This document shows positions 4,329-20,189 of a DNA stretch of 64,000 nucleotides, piece after piece. Source of the DNA: a virus. Taxonomy: Duplodnaviria; Caudoviricetes. Under the pieces are notes generated by a model. It was not told the origin of the DNA and ran no database searches. It saw only the letters and a list, made by a program, of their open reading frames with translations. Every line of letters begins with the position of its first letter. Position 1 is the first letter of the stretch. Both the position numbers and the translations under genes were made by a program. Location of the stretch: the IMG/VR virus record IMGVR_UViG_3300035208_008180; one strand, written 5' to 3'.

Positions 4329-4408
4329 TTCATACTACATTAAATTTACATTCCGGTGAAATATTCAATTTCACCACTTATCACACCTTTTTATAAATCG
4401 GAGGTTCT

Positions 4409-4993
4409 ATGTCTCAGAGTATGGGCATTGGTGCTCTTGGCGGCGGCGACGTAACATTCGCCAGAAAGTTTCGTTGGATACTTTCAAGTAAAGAAATTCC
4501 TTTAGAGATTATAACACAAACCGTTCATGTAGATTTTATTAATAAGTTTTTAAAACTTGATATAATGATGGTTTATTGCGAAAACAAGGATGTAATGGTC
4601 GATGAATGGCTAGGAAAAATAATTGACAAAACGATTAGAGAAAAACTTTGTCTCACCACATATGACGGATGTGGCAATGCTTTAGATCAATATACATTTG
4701 ATATTGACGACGTGAAAGAACAAGCAATGGATTTCGATTACGCCAGCAACGATGTTCTTAATATGAATGTAGTCTTGTCATTTAGACAATATGGGCGTCA
4801 GTTTTGCCTTAGGAAAAAACTTGGCGACAAACTTGAAGCAACGAAATGCTCGACAACACTGCCGCCACCGGGCGAGCTTAAAAGACTTAAAGATTTAAAT
4901 GGGACTTTTGAAGAAACAACAGTCCATCACTTAAATGGCTCAGTCGTATTGCCAGGAAGGTTTATAAACAAAAATGAACTATCAAGACAATAA
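4409..4993 (+). CDS. Divergent gp19-like tail tube paralog
   Basis: Shares RKFRW, YDGCGN and the C-terminal strands with 49466-49972 and 50053-50610. Confidence 0.65.
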   Translation: MSQSMGIGALGGGDVTFARKFRWILSSKEIPLEIITQTVHVDFINKFLKLDIMMVYCENKDVMVDEWLGKIIDKTIREKLCLTTYDGCGNALDQYTFDIDDVKEQAMDFDYASNDVLNMNVVLSFRQYGRQFCLRKKLGDKLEATKCSTTLPPPGELKRLKDLNGTFEETTVHHLNGSVVLPGRFINKNELSRQ

Positions 4994-6910: not shown

Positions 6911-7105
6911 ATGTTAGCATTACTTTGTGTTATTGTGGGGGCTTTTCTTTTAGGCAAAGCATTTGCCAAGAAGAATAATCAAGAAAAGGGTATTGTCGTT
7001 ATTTTGGGCGGAACTCTTTTACTAATCTACTTTTTCCCTGGGATTGCACTATTGATTCTGGGATTAGTATTATTGTCGTTCTTTGGGGTGAGTTTTGGAT
7101 TTTAA
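6911..7105 (+). CDS. Small membrane protein
   Basis: AGGAGG RBS; hydrophobic. Confidence 0.65.
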   Translation: MLALLCVIVGAFLLGKAFAKKNNQEKGIVVILGGTLLLIYFFPGIALLILGLVLLSFFGVSFGF

Positions 7106-7309
7106 AGTTACAATAATAGCTCCTAAATTCCAATCATTTTCCACCGCATAAGAAAAATTATGTCGATCTAGCACATCTTTGACTAATTGCTGCATTATTG
7201 GGCTGTTGCCCGTTATTATCCGAGCAGGCAGATTTTTGAGAAAAACAAAATTCTCAACCAATCTGTCTACTTGATGATGCCTAACACTATGTAGGTCTAA
7301 TTCATCCAT
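7070..7309 (-). CDS. Stand-alone Smr-domain protein
   Basis: MDELDLHSV...RIITGNS...LVKDVL...NLGAIIVTL; the longer track ORF overlaps a tRNA. Confidence 0.7.
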   Translation of the reverse strand: MDELDLHSVRHHQVDRLVENFVFLKNLPARIITGNSPIMQQLVKDVLDRHNFSYAVENDWNLGAIIVTLKSKTHPKERQ

Positions 7310-7311
7310 AG

Positions 7312-7401
7312 CGGAGACTAAAGGAATCGAACCTTCACCGGGGTTTAAGCCGGGCTTGTTTTCGAAACAAGTGCGACAAAGCCAATATTCGCCTAATCTC
7401 C
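7312..7401 (-). tRNA. tRNA-Ser(CGA)
   Basis: Cloverleaf; anticodon arm CTTGT-TTCGAAA-ACAAG; long V arm; G73. Confidence 0.9.
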
Positions 7402-7839
7402 ATTTTTTGTCAATTCGTTCCAAGAACCAATTCTTTTCCAATGAACACTGCCTTTGGAAAGTTTATTGAAAAACGCCTGTGTTATACAAACCTCACAATT
7501 TTGTATAAACATCTCTCCTTCTTCTGCTTTTAAAGGATCGTTCCATCTATTTCCATCAAACAGAGCTATTAGAACAAAAGTCTCACTGGCCACCTGTGCC
7601 AGTATCCAATAGCCATGTTCATTATGAAATATATCACCACTTTTATACATCATTGGTGGTAATCTACAGAGCGTTGGTTTGCCCAAGGGAATTTCAGCAC
7701 AGGGATTTTGCACTTTGGATCGAACCTTTGGTTCCAATGGAATTTCACTGTAATAGTCCCAATTACGATTCTGTCCATATTGTTCTTCCAACCACTTATT
7801 ATAGCATTCTTCGTCTTCAATGTATGGATTGGAATACAT
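7393..7839 (-). CDS. Hypothetical protein
   Basis: ORF; its stop codon lies inside the 5' end of tRNA-Ser(CGA). Confidence 0.55.
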   Translation of the reverse strand: MYSNPYIEDEECYNKWLEEQYGQNRNWDYYSEIPLEPKVRSKVQNPCAEIPLGKPTLCRLPPMMYKSGDIFHNEHGYWILAQVASETFVLIALFDGNRWNDPLKAEEGEMFIQNCEVCITQAFFNKLSKGSVHWKRIGSWNELTKNGD

Positions 7840-7841
7840 GC

Positions 7842-8405
7842 TTATTTTTTCACAAATGAGAAACCAGCAAGGTCTTCATTTTGGCTTTCTCTGTCTTGGT
7901 CGAAACCATGAAAAAGATGATCCAATATTGCTTTGCTGTCTACCAATCCACAATGCTTGTAATGTACCACTTTCTCTCCACCATGTCGCACCACAACAAT
8001 TATTGCTTTGATTCTAATGAGCCAATCTACCACATGCTTATAAAGCAATGCATCCATTCCCTTATCTGTCATTTCTTCTATTGTTAGTAATTCGTATTCC
8101 TTATAATAACCACGAGGGGTTATGATAAAACCACAACGATCAGGACGGAGGTTGGCTGCTAATTTCTTGTTTCGTAGCCATGTGCATTTATAATCTCTGC
8201 ACAACTGGGGACGGGTTTCATAACAATCACAACCCCCACCCTCTCTTATGTATGCACACATTGCTTTTGCAGGTTTGTCCCCTTGTTCAAAAAGAAAACA
8301 ACAGGCATAACAATCACCACAACTATGTGGACGATCTCGAAATAATTGCTGCTTTTTATTCCGCTCAGCAGCTTTCTTTTTCTTTTTTTCTAGCTTTTTA
8401 TTCAT
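7842..8405 (-). CDS. YkgJ-like CxxCxxCC cysteine-cluster protein
   Basis: CGDCYACC...CYETRPQLCRDYKC; start refined to just after the tRNA. Confidence 0.7.
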   Translation of the reverse strand: MNKKLEKKKKKAAERNKKQQLFRDRPHSCGDCYACCFLFEQGDKPAKAMCAYIREGGGCDCYETRPQLCRDYKCTWLRNKKLAANLRPDRCGFIITPRGYYKEYELLTIEEMTDKGMDALLYKHVVDWLIRIKAIIVVVRHGGEKVVHYKHCGLVDSKAILDHLFHGFDQDRESQNEDLAGFSFVKK

Positions 8406-8407
8406 AG

Positions 8408-8490
8408 TGCCCAGGACAGGAGTCGAACCTGCACGGGATTGCTCCCGCCAGCCCCTCAAGCTGGTGCGGCTGCCATTTCGCCACCTGGGC
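8408..8490 (-). tRNA. tRNA-Leu(GAG), long V arm
   Basis: CCAGC-TTGAGGG-GCTGG; GGTTCGACTCC; A73. Confidence 0.92.
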
Positions 8491-9111
8491 TTACAAATGT
8501 TGCTTATCTATCCAACCCCTGCTTTTTCTTCCTTTGCCACGATTTCTTCCAGCGAAGGTAGGCAATTGCATATCGCAGTTACCACAAACCAACCTTACAT
8601 TTTCTAATCTATGGTCTTCGGGATCGCCGTTGATGTGATCCAAAATAAGCGGGATAGGTTTTCCCATCCATTCGCTATTATTGCAGATTTCACATTGCCT
8701 TCCTCTAGTTTCAGCTAAATACTTTTTCGCCATGCTCGGATTATATCCGTAACCACAATTGGTTGGCAACAAAGCATTACTACTCTCGATCAATTCCTTC
8801 TTTTTCTTCCATTTCGATTCATTATTGCAGGCGTAGGAACAGTATTTTTTGTTCGTGGTTAAAGAGCCACAATTTAAACACTTGCAAAGTACCGGGCTTT
8901 GGGTGTTCCTCGCCACTCCTTTGTTGTTGAAGCTTGCCGAACAGCCACTACTACAGAAGTCATTCCTTCTTTTCTCATACGCTATTGTGAGTCCACAATT
9001 TTTACATAATTTAGGCTTCAGCAAGTACCGATCAAGGCATCTTTTGTGCTTTTCTCGCTGATAATGTCTGTTTTTTAATCCGCCTAATCTTCCACATTCG
9101 CTTTTATTCAT
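8491..9111 (-). CDS. HNH homing endonuclease with N-terminal Zn-finger repeats
   Basis: CEIC...LILDHINGD...NVRLVCGNCD. Confidence 0.85.
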   Translation of the reverse strand: MNKSECGRLGGLKNRHYQREKHKRCLDRYLLKPKLCKNCGLTIAYEKRRNDFCSSGCSASFNNKGVARNTQSPVLCKCLNCGSLTTNKKYCSYACNNESKWKKKKELIESSNALLPTNCGYGYNPSMAKKYLAETRGRQCEICNNSEWMGKPIPLILDHINGDPEDHRLENVRLVCGNCDMQLPTFAGRNRGKGRKSRGWIDKQHL

Positions 9112-9191
9112 TGCTACCTCTGTTTCTTGAAAATAATTATAAGATTATATAGTAATCCTACATTCATTTTTCGAGAAACAAATTTGGCAAG

Positions 9192-9263
9192 AGCTACTTA
9201 TTGGAATTACACCAATGCCTTCGCATTACGAGTGCGATATACTGCTGACTATACGAAAGTAGC
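9192..9263 (-). tRNA. tRNA-Thr(CGT), non-canonical T loop
   Basis: Acceptor GCTACTT/AAGTAGC; TCGCA-CTCGTAA-TGCGA; T loop TGTAATT. Confidence 0.8.
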
Positions 9264-9268
9264 ATAAG

Positions 9269-9354
9269 CGGAAGGTGTGGGAGTCGAACCCACAAGGCTT
9301 TTTACACTCGTCCGCTTTCCAAGCGGGTGCCGTCGCCAATCGGCTAGACCTTCC
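9269..9354 (-). tRNA. tRNA-Ser(GGA)
   Basis: CCGC-TTGGAAA-GCGG; long V arm; G73. Confidence 0.92.
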
Positions 9355-9661
9355 TTTTAAACAACTCTGGATTTTCTGCTACAATGCGTTTTGTTTCTTC
9401 GTGACGCAACCGCCAATCCTCTTCTTCCTGGGCCATATCACGAATCAACTGCCCAGTAGCCAGAAATTTGTCCACACAATCATCACAGATGCCGAAAATA
9501 AATCGTTCTAAATCATGTCTCGACCCATAGCCAGCCATGAAACCATCCACGTTAGCATCATCCCAGCAACTGCTTTGCGGCGTGCCATCCGACGTTTCGG
9601 GGTAGGGTTGCAATTGCTTGCAACAGCCTATACAGAGGATTTTAACATCTTTTGCCTTCAT
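9344..9661 (-). CDS. Hypothetical Cys-containing protein
   Basis: GGAG RBS before MKAKDVK; stop inside tRNA-Ser(GGA). Confidence 0.6.
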   Translation of the reverse strand: MKAKDVKILCIGCCKQLQPYPETSDGTPQSSCWDDANVDGFMAGYGSRHDLERFIFGICDDCVDKFLATGQLIRDMAQEEEDWRLRHEETKRIVAENPELFKRKV

Positions 9662-9673
9662 TACAATCTCCAG

Positions 9674-9756
9674 CGGAAGCGACAGGATTCGAACCTGCAA
9701 CCCGTCTTAGGGGCAACGGTTTTCAAGACCGCCCGCTAACCATTCGCCTCGCTTCC
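9674..9756 (-). tRNA. tRNA-Ser(TGA)
   Basis: CGGT-CTTGAAA-ACCG; long V arm; G73. Confidence 0.92.
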
Positions 9757-10022
9757 TAATGAGCCTCAAATCCCTTCTTCTCAATATCCTGTTTAATTTG
9801 TTCTATTACCTTAGTTCTGTTCACATAAGATTGGATCACGTATTGTCTGCCACTTGATGTAGTCAATTCGTTTGTTTCCTCATCAAAAACTTTAGGTGTA
9901 GAAACAAACACCGATTTTCCATCTTCAAAATTAGGATGCCCATAGACTTGCCCAGATAGCCTCCAAACATCCATCCCACAACCTAATTCCATTTCGTATT
10001 TTGCATTTTCTAATATAACCAT
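9756..10022 (-). CDS. Conserved-looking phage hypothetical protein
   Basis: GQVYGHPNFEDG...TTSSGRQY. Confidence 0.65.
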   Translation of the reverse strand: MVILENAKYEMELGCGMDVWRLSGQVYGHPNFEDGKSVFVSTPKVFDEETNELTTSSGRQYVIQSYVNRTKVIEQIKQDIEKKGFEAH

Positions 10023-10447
10023 TAAAAATTTCCTTCTGTCATGGCTTTGACAAATGCTTTTGCCATCACCATCCCGCCAGTTGTGGGAACAAATCTCGCA
10101 ATTGGTGAATAAAAATCAGGATTGTTGGAAAAATGTGGATCAATACTACCTTGTGCCAATAAATCCGCCACTGTTCCCTCAGCATAGACCAAGATTTTTA
10201 CACCCTCAAAGTTTGTGCAATCAGGATATTTAATCCTGACAATCAAAAATTCTCCAATTTGTTCCGAATATAAAATCTCAAAATTCTTTGGATTAGGATT
10301 CGGAAATTTCTTTTTTGCCTTCCTCCTCCCCTGTGTTTGCACCTGACAAGTCTCTGGTGATTGCTGCTGGTTACAATTGCAATATACAACCGTTGGCTTA
10401 TCGTATGAAGAAGAACTGCCACCAAAACCAAGTCCCATGATTAGCAT
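10022..10447 (-). CDS. Hypothetical protein
   Basis: AGGAGG RBS; YPDCTNFEGVKILVY...DPHF. Confidence 0.65.
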   Translation of the reverse strand: MLIMGLGFGGSSSSYDKPTVVYCNCNQQQSPETCQVQTQGRRKAKKKFPNPNPKNFEILYSEQIGEFLIVRIKYPDCTNFEGVKILVYAEGTVADLLAQGSIDPHFSNNPDFYSPIARFVPTTGGMVMAKAFVKAMTEGNF

Positions 10448-11865
10448 GCCTCCTTTTGTAATTTAGCATCCCTGCGAGCTTTCTTTAATCTATTCGAACA
10501 ACTTACAGAGCAGGTTTCGTGAGTTGCTTTGCGTTTGGTGTACACTTTTTTACACACCAAACAACGAGCCGTTTTTTTTGCCACTGAAGCTTTGAAACAT
10601 TCTTGGCTGCAAAATCTTGATTGGGCTTTTGTTCTTGCATGAAACTTTTGACGACAAAATTCACAACAGTAAATTGGCCACGATTGTTTTCGACATTCTT
10701 CACTGCAATACTTGGCACCATTTGATTGTTTGGAAAGAATCTTAAATATATTGCCACAAATTTTGCATTTCTTTTTTGTCAAAAGTCCTTTTGCCGATGC
10801 CTCTACATTCTCTTTCTTTAACTGTTGGATTTTATAATAATCAGTGTTCCAACACTTTTTACTGCAATACATTTGTGTGGCATAATTTACGCCAAATTCT
10901 TTTTTGCAACAAATGCAAATTCTTTTGTTTTTTCCACGTTTTCTGTGTTTTTCTGCCCACCAAGCATTACAACATTTTTTTGAGCAAAATAATGAAATAT
11001 AGGATTTTGGCTTAAATATATTCCCACAATTCTTGCAGGGACGTGGATTCAGCAGTTCTGGGAACTTTCGCCTCACCAAGCTTTTGCATTTTACACTACA
11101 ATATATCTTTCTAGAGGTTGGTACATCAAACACGTTTCCACAAATACATATCCTGCGTTGCTCTAGCCACCGCAACACTTTTTTCAAACGTATGCGAATT
11201 GCTTCTTTGGTTAGTCCTAATTCATCGCCTATCTCTTTAAGGGTCATTCTGCGACCCTTCAAACCGTAATATCGAAAAAGGACATCTCTGTATTTTTTAG
11301 GTATTTGTTTACGACGCACTAAAGACAACACTTCGTCAACCTGTTTTGCAACTTCGCTTTGTTGTCCTCTGTTAATATTATCAATTGGCTCTAAGGTTTT
11401 GTCTTCTTCAATACAACAACTAAAAGACCCAACAGTTTTTACTTTATTTATTTGTTGAAGAAGGGCTTCGTCTTTTGAAGATATTTCTTCTTTATCTTGA
11501 GATAGCCGAAATGCTCTTTTGTTTGCCCATTGCGGGATATAAATAATTTTTTTCTGAGCACGGGCATCATTTATAGCATGTTCAACCGCTGTGCTGACAT
11601 AAGTTGACAGCTTTGCTGTGATTCCATCCCAATGATCTACAGCACGACATATGGCTATGCTGGCTTCTGTTAAAAACTCATCATCTATTTCTTTGCCCTT
11701 ACAGGCGTCTCTTACTTTGCTAAACGCTAGACGCAAACAAGATTCGATGAGCTTGTGTCTTGCTTCTTGGTTGCCTGCCTTTGCTTTTGGAAGCAATTCC
11801 AAACACTCTTGATGACTTAGTATTTTGACATGTTTTAAATCATTTAAATAAGCATCAATATCCAC
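10441..11865 (-). CDS. Sigma-70-family factor fused to six C-terminal CxxC...CSxxC Zn-finger repeats
   Basis: Region 1.2/2 (AYLNDLKHVKILS...EARHKLIESCLRL) and region 4 HTH (MTLKEIGDELGLTKEAIR); GTG start at 11865 after AGGAAG. Confidence 0.85.
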   Translation of the reverse strand: MDIDAYLNDLKHVKILSHQECLELLPKAKAGNQEARHKLIESCLRLAFSKVRDACKGKEIDDEFLTEASIAICRAVDHWDGITAKLSTYVSTAVEHAINDARAQKKIIYIPQWANKRAFRLSQDKEEISSKDEALLQQINKVKTVGSFSCCIEEDKTLEPIDNINRGQQSEVAKQVDEVLSLVRRKQIPKKYRDVLFRYYGLKGRRMTLKEIGDELGLTKEAIRIRLKKVLRWLEQRRICICGNVFDVPTSRKIYCSVKCKSLVRRKFPELLNPRPCKNCGNIFKPKSYISLFCSKKCCNAWWAEKHRKRGKNKRICICCKKEFGVNYATQMYCSKKCWNTDYYKIQQLKKENVEASAKGLLTKKKCKICGNIFKILSKQSNGAKYCSEECRKQSWPIYCCEFCRQKFHARTKAQSRFCSQECFKASVAKKTARCLVCKKVYTKRKATHETCSVSCSNRLKKARRDAKLQKEAC

Positions 11866-11900
11866 AATAAACTTCCTTGTGTTTGTATCATCTTGCAGAG

Positions 11901-11976
11901 TAGCACCAGGGGGATTCGAACCCACCACTACCCAGTGTTTAAAACTGGTGACTTCTGCCAATTGGTCTATGGTGCC
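11901..11976 (-). tRNA. tRNA-Leu(TAA), short variable loop
   Basis: CCAGT-TTTAAAC-ACTGG; G1-U72; A73. Confidence 0.85.
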
Positions 11977-11981
11977 ATGAG

Positions 11982-12055
11982 TAGCGAGGAGGGGATTCGA
12001 ACCCCTACTGTCTGGTTCCTAAGACCAGTGCCGCTGCCAATTGGGCTACCTCGCC
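11982..12055 (-). tRNA. tRNA-Leu(TAG), short variable loop
   Basis: CTGGT-CTTAGGA-ACCAG. Confidence 0.88.
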
Positions 12056-12057
12056 AT

Positions 12058-12375
12058 TTATGATTGTTCTATATCCTGAACATCAACTCTTTTCCTAAGT
12101 TCTTTGAAAATTTCGTGTGCAGCTTCTTTTCCAGTTGTTGCAGCATCAAGCTTCTTTATCAATTCTGTTGTGCCTAATTTCCACACAGCATATTCTTCAT
12201 CGGTTTCACAGAGTATTAAATTCAGTTTACCAAACCGAACTACAGTCGAATGAGGATTGTCAGACAACCTTCGTAACGATTGTGCTGTTCCTGTGTTGAC
12301 TCGGATAACAAGGTCTACATCTGAGTTTGCGTTTGGCTTGCCGTAAGCTCTACTGCCCGTAATAAATGCGTTCAT
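12058..12375 (-). CDS. Minimal nucleotidyltransferase (MNT / Pol-beta family)
   Basis: FITGSRAYG-x5-SDVDLVI (GS...DxD motif). Confidence 0.8.
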   Translation of the reverse strand: MNAFITGSRAYGKPNANSDVDLVIRVNTGTAQSLRRLSDNPHSTVVRFGKLNLILCETDEEYAVWKLGTTELIKKLDAATTGKEAAHEIFKELRKRVDVQDIEQS

Positions 12376-12650
12376 TTTTTTACCTTGTCATCGTTCACTG
12401 GCCAATGCTTTCTGCCTTCTGAAACATGCTCTAATGCTTCTCGGATTATTTCAGGTGATTCCTCAATCTCAACAAAAGCCCACCCTGGCGGGCAATTGCC
12501 TACATTTTTCTTGGGAGATACCATCACCCCCAAGTGTTCGCCACAAGTTGCTAGCCCGCCACCAATCGATTTGAGAAATTCCGCATAACTGAGATTATCT
12601 GGAACTTCCAAATCATTCCCATGTTCATCCTTGCGACCAATGACTTTCAT
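12372..12650 (-). CDS. Hypothetical protein
   Basis: GGAG RBS before MKVIGRK. Confidence 0.55.
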   Translation of the reverse strand: MKVIGRKDEHGNDLEVPDNLSYAEFLKSIGGGLATCGEHLGVMVSPKKNVGNCPPGWAFVEIEESPEIIREALEHVSEGRKHWPVNDDKVKK

Positions 12651-12662
12651 TTTTTCTCCAAG

Positions 12663-12748
12663 CGGAAACGGAGGGAGTCGAACCCCCAAGGCTTTTTACA
12701 CTCATCTGTTTTCAGAACAGGTTTCGTCACCAATCGATTTGCGTTTCC
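12663..12748 (-). tRNA. tRNA-Ser(TGA) with C33
   Basis: Same V arm as Ser(GGA); CTGT-TCTGAAA-ACAG; G73. Confidence 0.75.
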
Positions 12749-12753
12749 GAAAG

Positions 12754-12827
12754 TAGCACCAGAAGGATTCGAACCTTCACTGAACAGTGTTTGAAACTGT
12801 TGCCGCTGCCAATTGGGCTATGGTGCC
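12754..12827 (-). tRNA. tRNA-Leu(CAA), short variable loop
   Basis: ACAGT-TTCAAAC-ACTGT. Confidence 0.88.
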
Positions 12828-12832
12828 ATAAG

Positions 12833-12906
12833 TAGCATCGGTGGGATTCGAACCCACAACCTCTACATTTTGAGTGTAGCGACTCTGCCAGTTGGTCTAC
12901 GATGCC
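12833..12906 (-). tRNA. tRNA-Leu(CAA), short variable loop
   Basis: CTACA-CTCAAAA-TGTAG. Confidence 0.88.
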
Positions 12907-12912
12907 AAAATA

Positions 12913-13608
12913 TCAAACAACCCCTAGTTGTGTCAGGATTGTCGCATGTTGCTCAGTCATGGTTGTCAGTTGTGTATTGAGGGATGCAAGTGATGCTTCC
13001 AAATCCGACTTCTCTGCCAGTATTACAGCATGCTGTTCTGTCAAGACTGCTAATTGTGCATTTAAAGATTCAAGAGATGCTTCCAAATCTGCTTTTTCTA
13101 TCAACAGTTCTTCCGCTGGTGTTTCTCCACTTGCATCAATGCCCGCATTTACAACCACCAGTCTTTCAGTCTTTGTTAGTATGTCAGCATTTATCAGGTC
13201 AATAGATGCTCCACTTGCATCAACGCTCGCACTTACAACTGCCAGTCTTTCAGTATTTGTTTGTATGCCAGGATTTATCGCATTTATTGCGGCAACAAGT
13301 TGTCGCAATTGATATTCTAATGAAAACAGTAATGCCATGCCCCCAACAACTTGAGCAGCTAAAGGGTGAGTATAAACCAATTCCCAAATATTATCAAAAA
13401 ATTCAACTTTGTCCTGATCTGCACCCGGATATAGTTGTTTTGTGGTGTAATTGTAGGGTCTAAAAACAATTGTCAATGGTTGTTTTGTAGCATCAACGTT
13501 TATCGTTTGCACGTTAAATGCCACAATATAAAGCTCGTTATACACAGCCTCAACAGTGGCAGGAACTATTAGTGGGCTTGGATTAGGAATCAGAGGTAAA
13601 TCAGCCAT
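12913..13608 (-). CDS. Coiled-coil protein with two pairs of internal repeats
   Basis: TERLxVVxAxxDASG twice and EKxDLEASLxSLNxQL...TEQHA twice. Confidence 0.7.
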   Translation of the reverse strand: MADLPLIPNPSPLIVPATVEAVYNELYIVAFNVQTINVDATKQPLTIVFRPYNYTTKQLYPGADQDKVEFFDNIWELVYTHPLAAQVVGGMALLFSLEYQLRQLVAAINAINPGIQTNTERLAVVSASVDASGASIDLINADILTKTERLVVVNAGIDASGETPAEELLIEKADLEASLESLNAQLAVLTEQHAVILAEKSDLEASLASLNTQLTTMTEQHATILTQLGVV

Positions 13609-13622
13609 ATTTTTTCCTTTGT

Positions 13623-13832
13623 TTAATTCAAATGTACTGTACCACGACCTTTGGTGGTTCTTACGATTTTTGTTATACCATCTTTTTCAACTTTTACAAT
13701 ACGAAGTGGATCACTTGGATACAAAGAGTCAAATGCGTCTACATAACCATCGCAATAAGCTCTTGTTTTATGCTCTATAAAAGATACTTTACGCCATCCA
13801 AGATCGCCACTGTTTCTCTCTACGTAATACAT
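13623..13832 (-). CDS. Hypothetical protein
   Basis: GGAG RBS before MYYVER. Confidence 0.55.
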   Translation of the reverse strand: MYYVERNSGDLGWRKVSFIEHKTRAYCDGYVDAFDSLYPSDPLRIVKVEKDGITKIVRTTKGRGTVHLN

Positions 13833-13845
13833 TTTTTTCTCCAAG

Positions 13846-13920
13846 TGCCACGAGCGAGATTCGAACTCGCACTGTCTAGTATCTCGGACTAGCGACTCCT
13901 ACCAATTGGTCTACCGTGGC
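13846..13920 (-). tRNA. tRNA-Leu(GAG), short variable loop, C33
   Basis: CTAGT-CCGAGAT-ACTAG. Confidence 0.8.
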
Positions 13921-13925
13921 GTACA

Positions 13926-14081
13926 TCACATATAATGATCTTGATCTTTTTCTCGCCAATATTCATCCTCTTTTTGCCGATACTCAGCATACTCTGCGTT
14001 TGTATAGTATTGATACGATCCACAGGCACACGGATTACAATTACATATTCTGCATACTGCTGCATTATCTATATCATTCAT
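13926..14081 (-). CDS. Small Cys-rich ORF (51 aa)
   Basis: MNDIDNAAVCRICNCNPCACG...; fills the gap between two tRNAs. Confidence 0.4.
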   Translation of the reverse strand: MNDIDNAAVCRICNCNPCACGSYQYYTNAEYAEYRQKEDEYWREKDQDHYM

Positions 14082-14104
14082 TATTATTTCTCGGGTGTGT
14101 AAAG

Positions 14105-14178
14105 TAGCGAGGAGGGGATTCGAACCCCTACTGGATAGTTCCTGAAACTATTGCCGCTGCCAATTGGGCTACCTCGCC
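14105..14178 (-). tRNA. tRNA-Leu(CAG), short variable loop
   Basis: ATAGT-TTCAGGA-ACTAT; body almost identical to Leu(TAG). Confidence 0.88.
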
Positions 14179-14184
14179 ATAAAG

Positions 14185-14262
14185 TGGCTGTGGCGGGTCT
14201 CGAAGCCGCAAAACATCACAAAGTTCTGGACTTTGCCGCTTTTCCGATTTGCGTACACAGCC
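14185..14262 (-). tRNA. Atypical tRNA-Leu(CAG): C33, 9-nt variable loop, T-stem mismatch
   Basis: Acceptor GGCTGTG/CACAGCC; CAAAG-TCCAGAA-CTTTG. Confidence 0.65.
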
Positions 14263-14267
14263 ATAAG

Positions 14268-14350
14268 TGCCCAAGGAGGGACTTGAACCCTCAAGAGATT
14301 TCTCTCGCCAGATTTTGAGTCTGGTGCGGTTGCCATTTCGCCACCTGGGC
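14268..14350 (-). tRNA. tRNA-Leu(CAA), long V arm
   Basis: CCAGA-CTCAAAA-TCTGG. Confidence 0.92.
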
Positions 14351-14355
14351 ATAAG

Positions 14356-14427
14356 TGGAGCAGGTGGGTATCGCACCCACGTCTACAGCTTTTCAGACTG
14401 TCACTAATCTACCTCAGTTACTGCTCC
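14356..14427 (-). tRNA. tRNA-Phe(GAA), non-canonical T loop
   Basis: ACAGT-CTGAAAA-GCTGT; T loop TGCGATA. Confidence 0.8.
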
Positions 14428-14432
14428 ATAAG

Positions 14433-14505
14433 TGGTAGGGGTCGGAGTCGAACCGACACTTCCACGTTTTCAGCGTGGCACTCAGACCAGCTAAGTTACC
14501 CTACC
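14433..14505 (-). tRNA. tRNA-Phe(GAA)
   Basis: CCACG-CTGAAAA-CGTGG; GGTTCGACTCC. Confidence 0.9.
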
Positions 14506-14956
14506 TCATTCCATCATGTATTTCTCTATGACAATTACTACAAACAAGCACACATTTTTTTACTTCTTCGATAAGTTTGTCCCAACGTGCTAACATTCCT
14601 TTGCTGGAAAATCCAAAACTTTTTTCTTGTTTTTCATCCATGTTTTTGTGATGAAACTCAAGAGCCTTCATACAACGATTATACCCACATTCTGAACAAG
14701 CACCGCCACACATTTTGACTAATTCAATCTTTCTGTTCTTTCTGGCTTTTCTTTGCCATTTTTTATATTTTTCATTATCACGCTTTCTTTTTTCTTCAGT
14801 TGTTAGCGGGATATGTTGAATTTCTAGTTTTTTTGTGTTGCCACAACCAAAAGGCGAACATTCAAGGCAATATTTGCGATTGTGCAGGTTTCTTATTTTT
14901 CCATCTATTTTAAGTTTTGATGGGAACTTTTTTTTACATAATTTACATAATGGCAT
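14501..14956 (-). CDS. HNH endonuclease-like protein
   Basis: CSECGY...LEFHH...KCVLVCSNCHREIH. Confidence 0.8.
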   Translation of the reverse strand: MPLCKLCKKKFPSKLKIDGKIRNLHNRKYCLECSPFGCGNTKKLEIQHIPLTTEEKRKRDNEKYKKWQRKARKNRKIELVKMCGGACSECGYNRCMKALEFHHKNMDEKQEKSFGFSSKGMLARWDKLIEEVKKCVLVCSNCHREIHDGMR

Positions 14957-15030
14957 AGTTTTTCTCCTATGCTATTATGTAGTAAAGTAGTATCAAAAAA
15001 TCCAACTTTTTTAGGCTACTTTTTCCTCAG

Positions 15031-15123
15031 TGGGAAGTGACGGAATCGAACCGCTCAAAGTCATACCACCCCAAATTCTTTAACGACTAACAGATTTACA
15101 GTCTGCCTTGGGGAACACCTCCC
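15031..15123 (-). tRNA. tRNA-Tyr(GTA)-like RNA lacking a D arm, with an enlarged V arm
   Basis: Acceptor GGGAGGT/ACTTCCC-A; GCAGA-CTGTAAA-TCTGT; GGTTCGATTCC; only 10 nt between acceptor and anticodon stems. Confidence 0.75.
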
Positions 15124-15127
15124 ATTT

Positions 15128-15283
15128 TGGTTCTCAGTGTGTTATTACACCAAAGGCAAGAGCGACAATACACACTCTTTGCGACACCCAGTATTGTTCT
15201 TTCCAGGTGATTGCTTTTCGCCACGCAGCTAACGCTACCACTCTTTAAATGCTGGACACTCCTAATCCCACATCCTGAGAACC
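15128..15283 (-). ncRNA. Unknown ~156-nt multi-helix structured RNA
   Basis: Closing stem GGTTCTCAG/CTGAGAACC plus nested helices; spaced 3-4 nt from the flanking tRNAs. Confidence 0.65.
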
Positions 15284-15286
15284 AAG

Positions 15287-15368
15287 TGTGCCGAGCCGGA
15301 ATTGAACCGACAAGTCCCGAAGGAGTCTCGTTTACAGCGAGGTGGGCCTGCCAATGCCCAATCGACAC
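15287..15368 (-). tRNA. tRNA-Tyr(GTA)
   Basis: CTCG-CTGTAAA-CGAG; V arm with TTCG loop; A73. Confidence 0.9.
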
Positions 15369-15370
15369 AT

Positions 15371-15733
15371 TTATTTTTCTTTCAAGTAACCTTTTTCCTG
15401 TGCGTGTTTGTCACATAGGGTTTTAACCCAACCATTTTTGTTCGTGTGCCTACATCCTTGTTCACCACAAACTTCGCAAATATGATATGAATCTCTTTCT
15501 GCCTGTTCAATTAAATTTAGAACAGAATGAACATCCCCGCCACCAGTGTCAATTGAGTAGTAGAACCTAAGTCCTCCAAATTTTTCTTTTATTTGCAGAA
15601 CTTTTAAATCCACCTTATTGGCACGAATCGCCGTAAACAATCGATCTACAAGATCATTCCAACCTTCCGCTATGGCAATTTCCACATAGCCTGTTGCTGG
15701 GAAAAACTCAGGATATTTTTCCTTGAAATTCAT
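15371..15733 (-). CDS. Phage hypothetical protein (QIKEKFGGLRFY family)
   Basis: Motif plus C-terminal CEVC...LCDKH. Confidence 0.7.
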   Translation of the reverse strand: MNFKEKYPEFFPATGYVEIAIAEGWNDLVDRLFTAIRANKVDLKVLQIKEKFGGLRFYYSIDTGGGDVHSVLNLIEQAERDSYHICEVCGEQGCRHTNKNGWVKTLCDKHAQEKGYLKEK

Positions 15734-16044
15734 TTCTTTTTACCAAAAATTTTCTTGTGGGCTTGCATGTATTTGTTTGTTCTCTCTGCCCAATCTTTTA
15801 TGATTGCTTCAATTTTATTTTGTGAAACCCTTGTTCCAATCAACGCATCCGTTCCCTTGTATTGGCCAGCATAACGATGGTGTTTCGTAAGCATATTTGC
15901 TAGTTCATCTGCCAAAAGTGTAGCATCATCCAAATCCTCTCTACAACCAGCCGCCTCTATTTTACCATTAGTATGAACCGCATAAGCATAATAAAGTGGC
16001 GGGCATTGTTTATCAACATACACTTGTGGGTTCCAACGGGGCAT
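15730..16044 (-). CDS. Hypothetical protein
   Basis: Operon packing. Confidence 0.55.
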   Translation of the reverse strand: MPRWNPQVYVDKQCPPLYYAYAVHTNGKIEAAGCREDLDDATLLADELANMLTKHHRYAGQYKGTDALIGTRVSQNKIEAIIKDWAERTNKYMQAHKKIFGKKK

Positions 16045-16047
16045 TTT

Positions 16048-16365
16048 CTATTCCTGTATTTGCTTGATAACCATGAAATGTTGTTTTTTGCCGATTCGAA
16101 TTATTCCCCATCCTGGCCAAATGAATTTAACCAGCGATTCAGGATCGGTTACTTTTTCGCCATTCCAAGACAAAGAACCTTCTTTAACTTTGCGTCTAAC
16201 TTCACTGATGCTTGGTAAGGCACCGCCATCAACACAAATCTGTGCTATTTTTCCATCCTGCACTGTTTTAGGACGCATCCACCACCACATGCTGGCAAAT
16301 GTTTCTTGACAAACAGCCTTGGGCTTGTTTAGTATTTCCCATAATTCATCAAATGTCAACATCAT
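16048..16365 (-). CDS. Stand-alone S4-like RNA-binding domain resembling the TyrRS C-terminus
   Basis: SISEVRRKVKEGSLSWNGEKVTDP...IIRIGKKQHF; GGAG RBS before ATG 16365. Confidence 0.7.
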   Translation of the reverse strand: MMLTFDELWEILNKPKAVCQETFASMWWWMRPKTVQDGKIAQICVDGGALPSISEVRRKVKEGSLSWNGEKVTDPESLVKFIWPGWGIIRIGKKQHFMVIKQIQE

Positions 16366-16379
16366 AATTTCTCCAAAAG

Positions 16380-16468
16380 CGGAAGTGACTAGAATCGAAC
16401 TAGCACTGGCTTTGACACCAGAACGGTTTAGCAAACCGCCGCAACAAACCAATATTTGCCTCACTTCC
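16380..16468 (-). tRNA. tRNA-Ser(GCT)
   Basis: GCGGT-TTGCTAA-ACCGT; long V arm; G73. Confidence 0.92.
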
Positions 16469-16483
16469 GAAGGCGTTTTTCAA

Positions 16484-16495
16484 TTGTCAAAGAAC
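16484..16495 (-). promoter_or_regulatory. boxA-like antitermination element
   Basis: GTTCTTTGACAA compared with rrn boxA (T)GCTCTTTAACA; lies between the first two tRNAs. Confidence 0.55.
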
Positions 16496-16503
16496 TCTCA
16501 CAG

Positions 16504-16587
16504 TGGTCTCGGCGGGAGTCGAACCCGCACGGGCATTACACCCAGGAGATTTTAAGTCTCCATTGTCTACCATTCCAACACGAGACC
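16504..16587 (-). tRNA. tRNA-Leu(TAA), long V arm
   Basis: GGAGA-CTTAAAA-TCTCC. Confidence 0.92.
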
Positions 16588-16613
16588 GTTCATAATATTC
16601 CTGCGGCCAAACA

Positions 16614-17084
16614 TTATCCATTTTTTATTTTTGCCCAGTTTACAAACTGTTCAAAGACCCATTGCATGGTGCCTTTGCTCACAAGTTCTGTTTGTTTACC
16701 CTCATCAGTTTGCCTAAATTCCTCCACATCTTTTTCCAACCTTTCAAGATAATCTTTTTTCATTCCTTCCAACATCATTGGCAGCACAATTTCATCCATC
16801 ATCAAGCCACCAGGGCTTTCATCCCATTCGACTTTATCCATTGGAACGCCGATTTTTTCCAAAAAGGCTTCCATATCAAAGTTATCCATCCATGTTTCGC
16901 CGCCAATCATTTCATCATTACTGCGAATCGTCCAGGCATCTTCCTCAGCCCAAGACATACCCATTTCTTTTCCAATAATTGCGTGGTCTGCAATCTTGCC
17001 TATTTGATCTTCGGACAAATATTTTTTTAGGATAGCGAAGCTTGAGCTTGAGCTATTGGACACAAATGTAGTTCTTATTTTCAT
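16614..17084 (-). CDS. Phage protein of the FVSNSSSSSF family
   Basis: MKIRTTFVSNSSSSSF; GAGGTG RBS. Confidence 0.7.
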   Translation of the reverse strand: MKIRTTFVSNSSSSSFAILKKYLSEDQIGKIADHAIIGKEMGMSWAEEDAWTIRSNDEMIGGETWMDNFDMEAFLEKIGVPMDKVEWDESPGGLMMDEIVLPMMLEGMKKDYLERLEKDVEEFRQTDEGKQTELVSKGTMQWVFEQFVNWAKIKNG

Positions 17085-17124
17085 ATTTCACCTCATGCAC
17101 ACATTATATCATATTTCAGGCAAT

Positions 17125-17164
17125 AAAAAAAGCCCGCTGACGGTTGACCGCCAGCGGGCTTTTT
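17125..17164 (-). terminator. Attenuator terminator (3:4 hairpin)
   Basis: AGCCCGCTGGCGG-TCAA-CCGTCAGCGGGCT followed by a T run. Confidence 0.9.
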
Positions 17165-17194
17165 GAAATGATCCTAGATCAGCCCAGGGCGGTC
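17146..17194 (-). promoter_or_regulatory. Antiterminator (2:3 hairpin)
   Basis: Leader 3' end GACCGCC-CT-GGGCT pairs with the terminator left arm AGCCC-GCT-GGCGGTC (7+5 bp). Confidence 0.75.
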
Positions 17195-17259
17195 CATACG
17201 CTCGTAAATAAATACGAGAGTGACAAGAGACTGCTCAGACTGGAATAGGACTTTTTCAT
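17179..17259 (-). CDS. Attenuator leader peptide MKKSYSSLSSLLSLSYLFTSVWTALG (26 aa)
   Basis: Codons 4-20 are exclusively Ser/Leu/Tyr/Phe/Thr(ACG), matching the downstream tRNAs; AAGGTTGAG before the ATG. Confidence 0.8.
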   Translation of the reverse strand: MKKSYSSLSSLLSLSYLFTSVWTALG

Positions 17260-17310
17260 TTGTTCTCAACCTTATATACGCTTCTCGCAACAATTCTGTT
17301 CAACATCCCT

Positions 17311-17339
17311 ATTATACTTCAGTTTTTTTGAATTGTAAA
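17311..17339 (-). promoter_or_regulatory. Sigma-70-type promoter of the leader/tRNA operon
   Basis: TTTACA-17 nt-TATAAT. Confidence 0.8.
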
Positions 17340-17351
17340 GAGGGAAAACAG

Positions 17352-17392
17352 AAAAATTTCACCCGCCCCCATTTATAGGGGGCAGATGAAAT
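17352..17392 (-). terminator. Intrinsic terminator insulating the tRNA operon from upstream genes
   Basis: ATTTCATCTGCCCCC/GGGGGCGGGTGAAAT stem plus T run. Confidence 0.7.
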
Positions 17393-17402
17393 CAGATCGG
17401 TA

Positions 17403-17984
17403 TTATTTACCGCAACCGCACCCGCCATCGCAATTGGCTTTACGGTATGGAGGCAAAACAGCCTTTACGGCCTTGCCTGCGACTTTTACAGATTTACGCA
17501 CTGGTTGAGCCGCAACAACGGCTTTCACCGGACCAGCAACGGCTGCACAAGCTGCCGGGGCACAAGCCTTGACAGGGGCACAAGCTGCTGGAGTATTTTC
17601 GCAACAACGTCTTCCCAAAAGCGGTCGCTCCACTCTTACTCGAACGACTCGGACTTTTTGGGTGGCAACAGGAGCACACGCTGCTACTGGGGCACACGCT
17701 GCTGGAGCACACGCCTTTGGTGTACAAGTCTTCGGGGTACGTACTTTTTTCACCCGAACAACTTCCTTCACTACCACTCTCTGACAAACCGCTGGGGCAC
17801 ACGCCTTGACGGCTTCACAAGCCTTAGGGGTAACCACCACCGGAGCGACTGGCGTACAAGCTGCTGGGGCACATGCCTTGACAGGCTCACAAGCCCCGCC
17901 AGTCCTGACTCTTGATGCCTGTGCAACCGAGCACATAGCAACCAAAGCCACAACACAAACTAAAGCGATAAAACGCTTCATCAC
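17403..17984 (-). CDS. Secreted Cys/Ala/Pro-rich repeat protein
   Basis: Signal peptide ending AQA; repeated (K)ACAPAAC units; AGGAGG RBS. Confidence 0.75.
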   Translation of the reverse strand: MMKRFIALVCVVALVAMCSVAQASRVRTGGACEPVKACAPAACTPVAPVVVTPKACEAVKACAPAVCQRVVVKEVVRVKKVRTPKTCTPKACAPAACAPVAACAPVATQKVRVVRVRVERPLLGRRCCENTPAACAPVKACAPAACAAVAGPVKAVVAAQPVRKSVKVAGKAVKAVLPPYRKANCDGGCGCGK

Positions 17985-18021
17985 ACACCTCCTTGGTTAA
18001 AGGGTTTCTCAAACAGAAAAT

Positions 18022-18324
18022 CTATTCTAACATACTCTTCTTCTTTTGTCTACCCCGCTTTTCAGATTTTTGACCGACTTTTTGGAATCTTGCGGCATAA
18101 TCTCTTAGCCCAATTTCCTTAAAAACTGTCAATTTCCACCTTTGTTTACATTCGGGGCACCTACGACGCAACACACAAGCTATCTTATCGAGAGGAATTT
18201 GTTTCAATCCCGCTCCACAGCCACAATAAAGTGTGAGACCTTTTCCCTCTTTGAAGGCTTCGGCCAACGTTTCGTTTTGATGTGTGAATGCGTGTTGTAA
18301 CATAATATATGCTTCCTGAATCAA
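18022..18324 (-). CDS. Hypothetical Zn-ribbon protein
   Basis: CGCG...CPEC. Confidence 0.5.
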   Translation of the reverse strand: MIQEAYIMLQHAFTHQNETLAEAFKEGKGLTLYCGCGAGLKQIPLDKIACVLRRRCPECKQRWKLTVFKEIGLRDYAARFQKVGQKSEKRGRQKKKSMLE

Positions 18325-18327
18325 TTT

Positions 18328-19074
18328 TTAGCGAACGTATGGCGGGTCTTCTGCCACTATCTGAGACTGCGGTTTAGTCTTTTTTTCCGGCTTTGGCGGC
18401 ACTTGCAGATTTATTTCAATGCCGTGGAAAATCCAATCGGAAATCCAGTTGTAGAAACCAGCAGTCCAACGTTGCAACCTTGCATAGAAGCCCATAATGA
18501 AGCCACTGCAAAGCCACCAGAACATGCTGGGAATCCACCAGAACATATCACGGGTAATATCGACTTTGAAATCCCGTGCTCGCAATTTAATGCGTGGAGT
18601 ATATGTGCGGTCGGATCGATCACCATAGGTGCCATCACAATCACACCATCGATATTTACCACGCATATCGGAGCGATTGCATAAGTATTCCAACCAGTCC
18701 CTCATTTTTTCAGGTGGTGGAACCTTCAAATTCGTGTCAAGATGATTCATTTCTAGCCAATTGGCCAACAAATCTTGATATGCATGTTTGCGACTAAAAC
18801 AACGGATGATCCAGTGAATCGTTGCCCATACTACACCGCAAGCAACAAATTCAAGCACATGCCAGAGCACGTTGTAGGGATGCTCTATGGACCAAGACAC
18901 CACATCCTTGCCGTTTCCGAAAAAATAAACCAAGGCACAGAAACCGGCCAACAGAATGGTGGCTACAAAGCCTTTTTCCCAATCGACTGCCCACACAATA
19001 AAACCAAACACGACGGCAGTCAAAATCCAAAAGATTGGATTAGTGACTATCAATAAAGTCCACACAGCTTCCAT
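18328..19074 (-). CDS. Membrane protein
   Basis: Several hydrophobic, Trp-rich segments. Confidence 0.65.
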   Translation of the reverse strand: MEAVWTLLIVTNPIFWILTAVVFGFIVWAVDWEKGFVATILLAGFCALVYFFGNGKDVVSWSIEHPYNVLWHVLEFVACGVVWATIHWIIRCFSRKHAYQDLLANWLEMNHLDTNLKVPPPEKMRDWLEYLCNRSDMRGKYRWCDCDGTYGDRSDRTYTPRIKLRARDFKVDITRDMFWWIPSMFWWLCSGFIMGFYARLQRWTAGFYNWISDWIFHGIEINLQVPPKPEKKTKPQSQIVAEDPPYVR

Positions 19075-19091
19075 TTTCTTACCCTTTCATA

Positions 19092-19262
19092 TTAGACTTC
19101 AAGAACCACACAGGTTTCCAACTCAGTATCGACTTCGAGGGTGCAACATTCACCCCATTGAAACCATCTTTTAAGAAGCTCCATTATTTTTTCTTCCTGA
19201 TCTTCTGGCAATTCCACATGAGCGAGAGCATCAGGGGTTTTCATGTGAATTCTTAGCTTCAT
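19092..19262 (-). CDS. Small hypothetical protein (56 aa)
   Basis: MKLRIHMKTPDAL...WFQWGECCTLEVDTE; fills the gap. Confidence 0.55.
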   Translation of the reverse strand: MKLRIHMKTPDALAHVELPEDQEEKIMELLKRWFQWGECCTLEVDTELETCVVLEV

Positions 19263-19785
19263 TTTTTCTTTCCTTTTCTTTGGCGGCTGCTACTGAAGCA
19301 TATGCAAATGCTTGATGTACTTCCGCATCCATTGTATTCTCTGGTAGTGCTTCCATTTCGGCATCCCAAGCACCATCAATTTTCATATCTCTTTCCACTG
19401 GTTTTTGTGGCTTTTGATTTCTCTTTTTACAACACCACTTCACAATTCCCCATTTTTCATTTTTTATTTTGTAAATGGCGGCAAGATCATCAAACATCAA
19501 TGGTTCGGAATCTGCACAAGCCCAGGCAAATACATCACTGCAATTTATGTGTATATTAACTAATCCTTCTTTGTTGCCAAACACCAAAAACTGATCTGTG
19601 TCCAGAAGCTCCTTTAATGCCACTACTTCATCGCAACACTCTTCTCCACCCACATCAAAAATCGCACTTTCCTCTTTTTCTGACGGATGTTGCGACTCCC
19701 AATCATCAAGCATATCCGAGATATTGTGAACAGATTCTCCCGCCGATGTAAGTAGTTCCCGCCATTCTTGCGGTGTGCGGCTCAT
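19231..19785 (-). CDS. Hypothetical protein
   Basis: INCSDVFAWACADSE motif. Confidence 0.6.
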   Translation of the reverse strand: MSRTPQEWRELLTSAGESVHNISDMLDDWESQHPSEKEESAIFDVGGEECCDEVVALKELLDTDQFLVFGNKEGLVNIHINCSDVFAWACADSEPLMFDDLAAIYKIKNEKWGIVKWCCKKRNQKPQKPVERDMKIDGAWDAEMEALPENTMDAEVHQAFAYASVAAAKEKERKNEAKNSHENP

Positions 19786-20189
19786 TTAATCGTGCCTTTT
19801 GAAAACAAAGCAGCTTCTTCGTCCATTTCTTGAAGTGCTTGCATCAAACCAAAACATTGAAATTGGTCTTCATAAGCTACATCGGCAGAGACAACTCCTC
19901 CACCACTTTCCTGCATATATGAAATAATTTCTTTTTTGTCGTCTTCACTTAATTTAGGTGAAATCACCCCATCTACGGTCAAATCCAATACAAATGAAGC
20001 TGCCGAGAAAATTCTACTTGTCATAAGATGTGAATCTTTCTCGAAGTCCACTGTTTTCACATCAAAAAATCCGCATCTTCTATCCAGAGTTTCTGGAGAA
20101 ATATTTTTTTTGGTTCTGGCATCACGCACCGCATCCACCAGATTTTTTTGCATTTGTTCCCAGCTACCGTAATATTTTAACATTTTCAT
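19782..20189 (-). CDS. XRE-like helix-turn-helix protein
   Basis: VRDARTKKNISPETLDRRCG...VDFEK. Confidence 0.45.
   Translation of the reverse strand: MKMLKYYGSWEQMQKNLVDAVRDARTKKNISPETLDRRCGFFDVKTVDFEKDSHLMTSRIFSAASFVLDLTVDGVISPKLSEDDKKEIISYMQESGGGVVSADVAYEDQFQCFGLMQALQEMDEEAALFSKGTIK

Follow-up and report, generated by a model that had tools for sequence, protein, structure and literature searches.

A likely leader-peptide attenuator at the head of a tRNA gene array in a large phage genome

Transfer RNA genes are carried by many large phages, and to our knowledge essentially nothing is known about how the expression of these genes is controlled. The question is raised directly by the 64,000-nucleotide stretch of phage DNA that is the subject of this analysis (the window; G000:C200:224001-288000), on the minus strand of which a promoter, a very short ORF and a terminator precede an array of tRNA genes. 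A reading of this DNA that had been made without database searches (the sequence-only reading) interpreted the unit as an attenuator of the trp/his type that samples the same tRNA species that are encoded by its array, and inferred that it detects the loss of specific tRNAs, for example through the action of a host anticodon nuclease. The first part of this interpretation stands in silico, where the evidence consists of the parts of the unit, their conservation, the alternative RNA helices, the ribosome geometry and the match between codons and anticodons, whereas for the host anticodon nuclease as the trigger we found no evidence, although it is not excluded. In the absence of any expression data, we consider it likely that the unit is a ribosome-mediated (leader-peptide) attenuator and that it heads an operon in which an ORF for a 156-aa protein is followed by a Ser/Leu/Phe/Tyr/Thr-CGT tRNA array.

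Genome context and parts of the leader unit

The contig from which the window is taken, C200, comprises 340,072 bp at 40% GC. Its genes include those for a tail sheath, a baseplate hub, ribonucleotide reductase and SbcCD-like nucleases, and ARAGORN recognizes 65 tRNA genes, which are sorted by amino acid into three blocks; from this gene content together with the tRNA genes we infer a jumbo myovirus-like phage. The bin G000 is a mixed one, in which large contigs of 38-42% GC (C200, C137, C226, C242 and C44) occur amid contigs of ~70% GC, and it contains no readable information on the host of the phage.

The array of the window (7311-16587, minus strand) is the presumed cargo of the regulatory unit. 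It encodes only Leu, Ser, Phe and Tyr tRNAs and one Thr-CGT, with interleaved ORFs, and amounts to 17 tRNAs by ARAGORN and to 12 anticodon classes once additions by Rfam are included. The Thr-CGT tRNA (9192-9263, minus), which is the sole Thr tRNA of this array, was missed by ARAGORN and detected by Rfam, and in an alignment its anticodon loop is the same as that of the Thr-CGT that ARAGORN does call in a relative. Another tRNA-like match that ARAGORN missed (12664-12748, minus; anticodon undetermined) scores 38.1 bits against the Rfam tRNA-Sec model, which is under the gathering score of 47 bits. Several of the tRNA-Leu genes between 11901 and 14178 (minus) are just 74-77 nt in length and lack the long variable arm that is normal for bacterial tRNA-Leu; they adjoin Leu genes with the normal long arm. 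Between the first two tRNAs (16482-16495, minus) there is a one-mismatch copy of a TTGACA-containing 14-mer, which has three matches at no more than two mismatches in the window, a number not above chance.

All of the elements that the sequence-only reading had named in the leader unit (referred to below as leader C, to distinguish it from two further leaders, A and B) were recovered on the minus strand where it had placed them. The gene upstream of the leader (17403-17984, minus) encodes a Cys-rich, repeat-rich protein for which no family was found, and a copy of it with a signal-peptide-like N-terminus is conserved in position in the related locus L005 (~4155-4560). The intrinsic terminator of this gene for a Cys-rich secreted protein, at 17355-17393 (minus), consists of a 16-pair stem and a T run that insulate the leader promoter, as had been proposed, and an equivalent hairpin and T run lie ahead of the leader promoter in L005. 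The promoter itself, TTTACA-17-TATAAT (17311-17339, minus), is of the sigma-70 type with a match at 11 of 12 positions, and is the best sigma-70-like match in the 13 kb that were scanned (7000-20000); L005 has TTGAAA-17-TATAAT at the same place. The 5' untranslated leader (17260-17304, minus) carries only a weak Shine-Dalgarno signal, for which AAGG (17273-17270) and GAG (17267-17265) are the candidates. Like the L005 promoter, these were read from the sequence by inspection. The GAG five bases 5' of the ATG is common to the window and L005, and leaders A and B have AAGG 6-11 bases before their ATG.

The leader ORF (17179-17259, minus) begins with ATG and has 26 codons plus TGA, with the same length in the related loci L003 and L005. 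Its control codons, 4-19 (17203-17250, minus), specify Ser, Leu, Tyr and Phe and a single Thr (ACG) and call on 11 of the 12 anticodon classes of the array. The RNA of the unit can be divided into four regions, all encoded on the minus strand. Region 1 (17213-17257) is the 5' strand of a long leader hairpin, in which it pairs with 17165-17206, and corresponds to an anti-antiterminator. Region 2 (17181-17194), the 5' arm of the antiterminator, is made of codons 22-26 and the first base of the stop codon, and pairs with region 3 (17146-17160), which by folding is the 5' arm of the terminator and is common to the antiterminator and the terminator. Regions 3 and 4 form the intrinsic terminator (17125-17164), which is as strong as had been claimed (-30.4 kcal/mol) and is followed by seven U. 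This terminator was not listed by a consensus scan, and was aligned by RNAfold and by the Rfam leader models. The attenuator terminators of leaders A, B and C and of L005 end nearly alike, with three G/C, seven T and ATTG (window 17121-17134; L005 4814-4827; C200 ~38486-38499 and ~75704-75717), and this common context may reflect either a shared origin or a requirement for the context.

The first gene after the attenuator (16614-17084, minus) encodes the 156-aa protein, the function of which is unknown. In its N-terminal domain of ~90 aa, a run of five serines is invariant and a Trp-Met-Asp-Asn-Phe-Asp-Met motif is conserved; there are 2545 relatives in metagenomes, which are mostly phage-like proteins of ~90 aa. 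No Pfam or PHROG family was found for the protein, and its predicted structure (mean pLDDT 79) yielded no convincing fold match in the PDB. A homologue of this ORF follows the leader in each of the leader lineages.

Conservation and alternative structures of the leader

The sequence-only reading had proposed a search of related phages for units of a short ORF and a terminator ahead of tRNA arrays, and a search of the relatives did detect them. Among the homologues for which DNA could be retrieved, the complete leader unit (promoter, 26-codon ORF and terminator) exists in three distinct lineages, to which the evidence from conservation is confined. These are represented by the window, with which the unit of L009 is identical, by L003 and L004, in which the neighbouring homologue of the 156-aa protein is 77% identical, and by L005 through L008, in which it is 50% identical. 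The length of the ORF is exactly 26 codons in all three. The order of the genes that follow is also the same in all of the lineages, i.e., the first ORF, tRNA-Leu(TAA), tRNA-Ser(GCT) and then further Leu, Ser, Phe and Tyr tRNAs, and the L005 array also includes Thr-CGT.

Comparison of the leaders of the window and L005 separates the ORF into segments with different patterns of change. Across the core, codons 7-20, there are four differing sites, all of which are synonymous third positions (~1% by chance), and a reciprocal exchange of TTG and TTA between codons 12 and 17 is such that both Leu isoacceptors stay represented. At codons 4-6 the amino acids change, but always inside the set Ser/Tyr/Phe, and at codons 2-3 and 21-26 the residues are unrelated. 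In the window, every codon from 4 to 20 specifies Ser, Leu, Tyr, Phe or Thr; since codon 20 is Lys in L003, we take the conserved control run to be codons 4-19, which remain within this amino-acid set in all three lineages.

Megablast and tblastn searches of GenBank phages and single-protein scans of IMG/VR detected no relatives. Scans of IMG/VR and of genomes with DNA patterns of the conserved leader core gave no hit, and in JGI metagenomes such scans gave only 4 chance matches, located inside unrelated genes. A profile search of IMG/VR yielded 80 loci with distant homologues of the N-terminal domain of the 156-aa ORF, none of them with a comparable leader upstream, from which we infer that the leader is confined to a closer clade. 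The contigs of seven further relatives, where their DNA was retrievable, have tightly packed operons without a leader.

The leader RNA folds much more stably than shuffled versions of itself, with z-scores of -4.8 (-4.76 for the whole leader of the window) and -5.0 for the leader folds. In each lineage three mutually exclusive helices are possible: a leader hairpin that spans the ORF (-25 to -30 kcal/mol across the lineages, and -29.5 kcal/mol in the window by RNAfold), an antiterminator formed by the last codons and the 5' arm of the terminator (-18.5 to -25 kcal/mol), and the terminator (-29 to -30 kcal/mol across the lineages, the value for the window being the one given above). The pairing of the last leader codons with the terminator 5' arm, which had been noticed by inspection, is well supported by calculation, in that the duplex of regions 2 and 3 in the window has an energy of -23.6 kcal/mol that is reached by only 0.06% of background 25-mers (p ~6e-4); across the lineages, only 0.05-0.07% of such 25-mers pair as strongly as the antiterminator. 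When the helices are compared among the three lineages, 91% of cells are paired in the leader hairpin and 100% in the terminator, in which 4 pairs have changed on both sides between the window and L005. Region 2 follows these changes in the 5' arm, with one C-G pair being replaced by U-A and one pair by G-U. In L003, two substitutions lengthen the antiterminator.

The position of the translating ribosome at which these helices would be exchanged was simulated with a footprint model in which the leading edge of the ribosome is placed 13 nt past the first nucleotide of the codon in the A site. In all three lineages, according to the model, the antiterminator survives when the ribosome stalls at any of codons 1-18/19 and is disrupted once the ribosome has advanced to about codon 20 or further; with the ribosome at the stop codon, region 2 would be covered and the terminator left free. 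The switch point at codon 19/20, which is simulated and not measured, falls where the conserved control run ends. When the nascent RNA is folded at equilibrium with no ribosome on it, the antiterminator is slightly preferred, by ~6 kcal/mol (-42.1 versus -36.4 kcal/mol), and the default state of an untranslated leader would therefore rest on folding kinetics.

Codon choice in three leaders of one phage

How unusual the control run is can be judged against the rest of the contig, since the set of amino acids used for the count was fixed beforehand by the composition of the array. Runs of at least 16 codons drawn from the set Ser/Leu/Tyr/Phe/Thr occur only 5 times among the 680,140 codon positions of the six frames, and 3 of the 5 are simple repeats, so that only two non-repeat runs remain. 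A scan for short ORFs followed by a terminator, in the contig (with ATG starts and a strict terminator filter) and in ~650 kb of unrelated phage loci, revealed no close rival of leader C.

If both Watson-Crick and G-U wobble pairs are allowed between leader codons and array anticodons, the window leader calls on 11 of the 12 anticodon classes, in agreement with the original count, and the class that is missing is Leu-TAG. The L005 leader also uses CTA and calls on all 12. With the peptide held fixed and synonymous codons drawn from the phage's own usage, coverage of this extent has a probability of p=0.017 for the window and p=0.0005 for L005, two values that are not independent because the lineages share ancestry. 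Isoacceptor coverage is thus higher than synonymous codon usage predicts, and the synonymous differences between the window and L005 preserve or extend it.

A rescan based on composition uncovered two further leader ORF units on C200, outside of the window. Leader A (38578-38682 of C200, equivalent to L098:779-883; minus strand) has 34 codons and precedes a block of Glu, Val, Pro, Ala, Gly, Thr, Asp, Asn, Arg and Ile-TAT tRNAs, in whose residues it is written. Leader B (75794-75862 of C200, equivalent to L099:795-863; minus strand) has 22 codons and precedes Ile-GAT, Lys, Gln, Cys, Trp and His tRNAs; from codon 3 to codon 17 it encodes only Lys, Gln, Trp, His, Cys or Ile, and two tRNA-Met genes that lie just upstream of it are outside of its control. 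Downstream of array B (C200 68353-68475, minus) there is also a repeat-rich short ORF, mostly of Met, Thr, Lys, Arg, Gly and Ile codons and 19 nt before a terminator, which lacks antiterminator complementarity and probably represents an artefact of the repeats.

The sequence-only reading would have been refuted by leaders that do not track the content of their arrays, and the opposite is seen. Leader A calls on 18 of the 21 anticodons of its own array, leader B on 8 of 8 and leader C on 11 of 12, and none of the three calls on more than 4 anticodons of any other array, so that the three-by-three comparison of leaders and arrays is cleanly diagonal. The correspondence extends to amino acids that are divided between blocks. 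The Thr codon ACG is used in leader C, whose array has Thr-CGT, as opposed to ACA and ACC in leader A, whose array has Thr-TGT and Thr-GGT; and the Ile codon ATA is used in leader A, whose array has Ile-TAT, as opposed to ATT in leader B, whose array has Ile-GAT.

Leaders A and B are each followed by a terminator with a competing helix upstream. They differ from leader C in design, since in the latter there are three helices and region 2 overlaps the stop codon, whereas in the former the chain of helices is longer and starts just after the stop codon. Simulation of the ribosome on leader A gave a sharp switch at the last two codons, and the equilibrium simulation with a masking ribosome was ambiguous for leader B.

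Proposed mechanism, rival explanations and known systems

The mechanism that we propose for leader C begins with transcription from the strong sigma-70-type promoter and the loading of a ribosome on the 26-codon ORF; that the leader is translated at all is an inference, as is its response to the supply of tRNA. If codons 4-19 were decoded rapidly, the ribosome would arrive at codons 20-27 and cover region 2, the terminator would form and transcription would stop. If a charged tRNA were scarce, the ribosome would stall within codons 4-19, where it would open the leader hairpin and leave region 2 free; the latter could then pair with the 5' arm of the terminator, and RNA polymerase would read through into the ORF and the tRNA genes. 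The newly made phage tRNAs would in turn exert negative feedback on the readthrough. Since the control codons are spread over nearly all of the anticodon classes of the array, we infer that the device reports on the decoding capacity of those tRNA species.

How far such control reaches down the array is likewise a matter of inference. The sequence-only reading had cautioned that a -10-like box downstream of the terminator might bypass the attenuator, and this caution is now strengthened, since the TATAAT is kept in three of four lineages. A candidate extended -10 box, TGnTATAAT (17103-17111, minus; identified by reading the sequence), is present as TGATATAAT at 17111-17103 between the terminator and the first ORF and might constitute a bypass promoter. 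A TATAAT occurs in this interval in the window, L003 and L094, and belongs to an extended -10 in the window as well as in L094; the conserved box may give transcription that is independent of the attenuator. L005 lacks the box, and the ribosome-binding site of its ORF directly follows the terminator. The 10-kb array itself holds more promoter-like and terminator-like sites, the first reasonable terminator being at 12493-12478, and control by the attenuator may extend no further than the first ORF and the first tRNAs, which keep their order in all of the lineages and are the only genes for which such control can be taken as secure. The sequence TATAATGTG was also considered as a recurrent promoter motif of the phage, and was ruled out with just 5 copies in 340 kb.

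The attenuator might of course be real and yet monitor starvation for the amino acids Ser, Leu, Tyr and Phe, in which case its match to the array would exist at the level of amino acids only. Classical leader attenuators all respond to the levels of charged tRNAs, which are set by the supply of amino acids, and the control run was itself first defined by amino-acid identity. Such an explanation would, however, leave it to chance that more anticodon classes are covered than synonymous usage predicts (p=0.017 and p=0.0005), that the reciprocal TTG/TTA swap keeps both Leu classes, and that Thr and Ile codons are split between the leaders according to which array holds the cognate isoacceptor. The tRNA genes under regulation could not relieve a shortage of amino acids in any case. 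Because codon choice tracks isoacceptors and tRNAs cannot make up for a lack of amino acids, we regard the starvation variant as unlikely.

Two other explanations dispense with attenuation altogether. The ORF could be a free-standing small gene that has a promoter and a terminator to itself and encodes a Ser/Leu-rich peptide of 26 residues, its likeness to an attenuator and its match to the array being coincidental, as might be suggested by a 14-residue core that is identical between lineages and changes only synonymously, by the resemblance of Met-Lys-Lys and the ensuing Ser/Leu-rich stretch to small membrane or signal-like peptides, and by the -10-like box after the terminator. We find this very improbable, since it would offer no reason for the co-variation between the C-terminal codons and the 5' arm of the terminator, for the end of the conserved run at the point at which a ribosome would start to mask region 2, or for the presence in one phage of two other, unrelated peptides that each mirror the array behind them; moreover, a core without Ile, Val, Ala, Gly and Met would be unusual for a membrane helix. 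Alternatively, the ORF might be accidental and the unit non-coding, being a small structured RNA with its 3' end at the terminator, or else merely a promoter and a terminator. A transcript that consists of a long stable hairpin and a terminator (z about -5) and has only a weak ribosome-binding signal would be compatible with this idea, which can hardly be maintained in view of the conservation of ORF length and frame in three lineages, the confinement of all four core differences to synonymous third positions (~1% by chance) and the extreme rarity of the composition run. A pyrimidine-rich strand gives the composition in one frame only, the one with the ATG and with a stop in region 2, and the co-variation of C-terminal codons and terminator arm, the position of the switch and the two other array-matched leaders would also go unexplained. 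On the ribosome-mediated attenuator, by contrast, the coding-type substitutions, compensated helices, simulated ribosome geometry, isoacceptor coverage and leaders A and B all agree.

Whether an attenuator of this kind has a role beyond the adjustment of tRNA supply is a separate question. It is possible, although we put it forward with considerable reserve, that the three leaders together constitute an isoacceptor-resolved monitor of nearly the whole decoding pool, which serves as a counter-defence in that depletion of a tRNA switches on the array with its replacement. The removal of tRNAs by a host anticodon nuclease or by some other system that depletes tRNAs would, in this scenario, cause a stall on the matching leader codon and thereby turn on the array that holds the replacements. 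A trigger of this anti-defence type remains speculation, and a simple feedback between supply and demand that acts through decoding speed explains the data equally well.

If the attenuator were confirmed, textbook attenuation would be extended to tRNA genes, in a loop in which slow decoding leads to more tRNA, more tRNA to faster decoding and faster decoding to termination, with a sensor that appears to resolve individual isoacceptors rather than amino acids. Confirmation would also explain the sorting of tRNA genes of giant phages into blocks, would yield a naturally occurring and compact sensor of tRNA availability that could be built into reporters, and would offer a direct handle on the role of phage tRNAs in compensating for codon usage versus countering defences that target tRNAs. 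The sequence-only reading knew of no described equivalent, and our search of the full-text literature for leader-peptide attenuation of tRNA genes, in phages or elsewhere, likewise found no description, with the qualification that its coverage was incomplete and that absence is unproven. What appears to be new, as supported in silico and still in need of experimental proof, is thus the application of a known kind of attenuation to tRNA genes.

Among the Rfam models, leader C has a weak full-length resemblance to those of the His and Thr operon leaders. It does not reach the gathering threshold of the leader families His_leader (31.7 bits against 49), Thr_leader (21.7 against 55), Trp_leader (12.7 against 41) or trpB, and the L005 leader scores 21.9 bits against the 55 of Thr_leader; membership in a leader family was rejected, since the matches are sub-threshold and mostly driven by the terminator. 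T-box riboswitches resemble leader C in that they report on specific tRNA species through a switch between terminator and antiterminator, and differ from it in that the T-box binds uncharged tRNA directly and without translation, whereas the sensor of leader C would be a translating ribosome; Rfam gave no T-box match in 17050-17420 at E values up to 10. The pheM leader attenuator of E. coli pheST places a component of the translation machinery, phenylalanyl-tRNA synthetase, under the control of cognate-codon decoding. It differs from leader C in that one amino acid is sensed and a synthetase is controlled, without control of tRNA and without a multiplexed set of codons.

The structural features of the classical leader-peptide attenuators (promoter, short ORF, run of regulatory codons, terminator and competing helices) are all met by leader C. 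It shares a promoter, a short ORF, regulatory codons and mutually exclusive helices with ilvGMEDA (Ile/Leu/Val), thr (Thr/Ile), trpL, hisL, leuL and pheL, and with the multivalent ilvGMEDA and thr leaders it would share, in addition, the principle that the position of the ribosome picks the helix and that several amino acids can be sensed by one leader. The leaders of the enterobacterial amino-acid operons regulate biosynthetic enzymes and repeat one or two codons, whereas leader C is a phage element that would regulate tRNA genes and phage ORFs, and that spreads its control codons over 11-12 anticodon classes.
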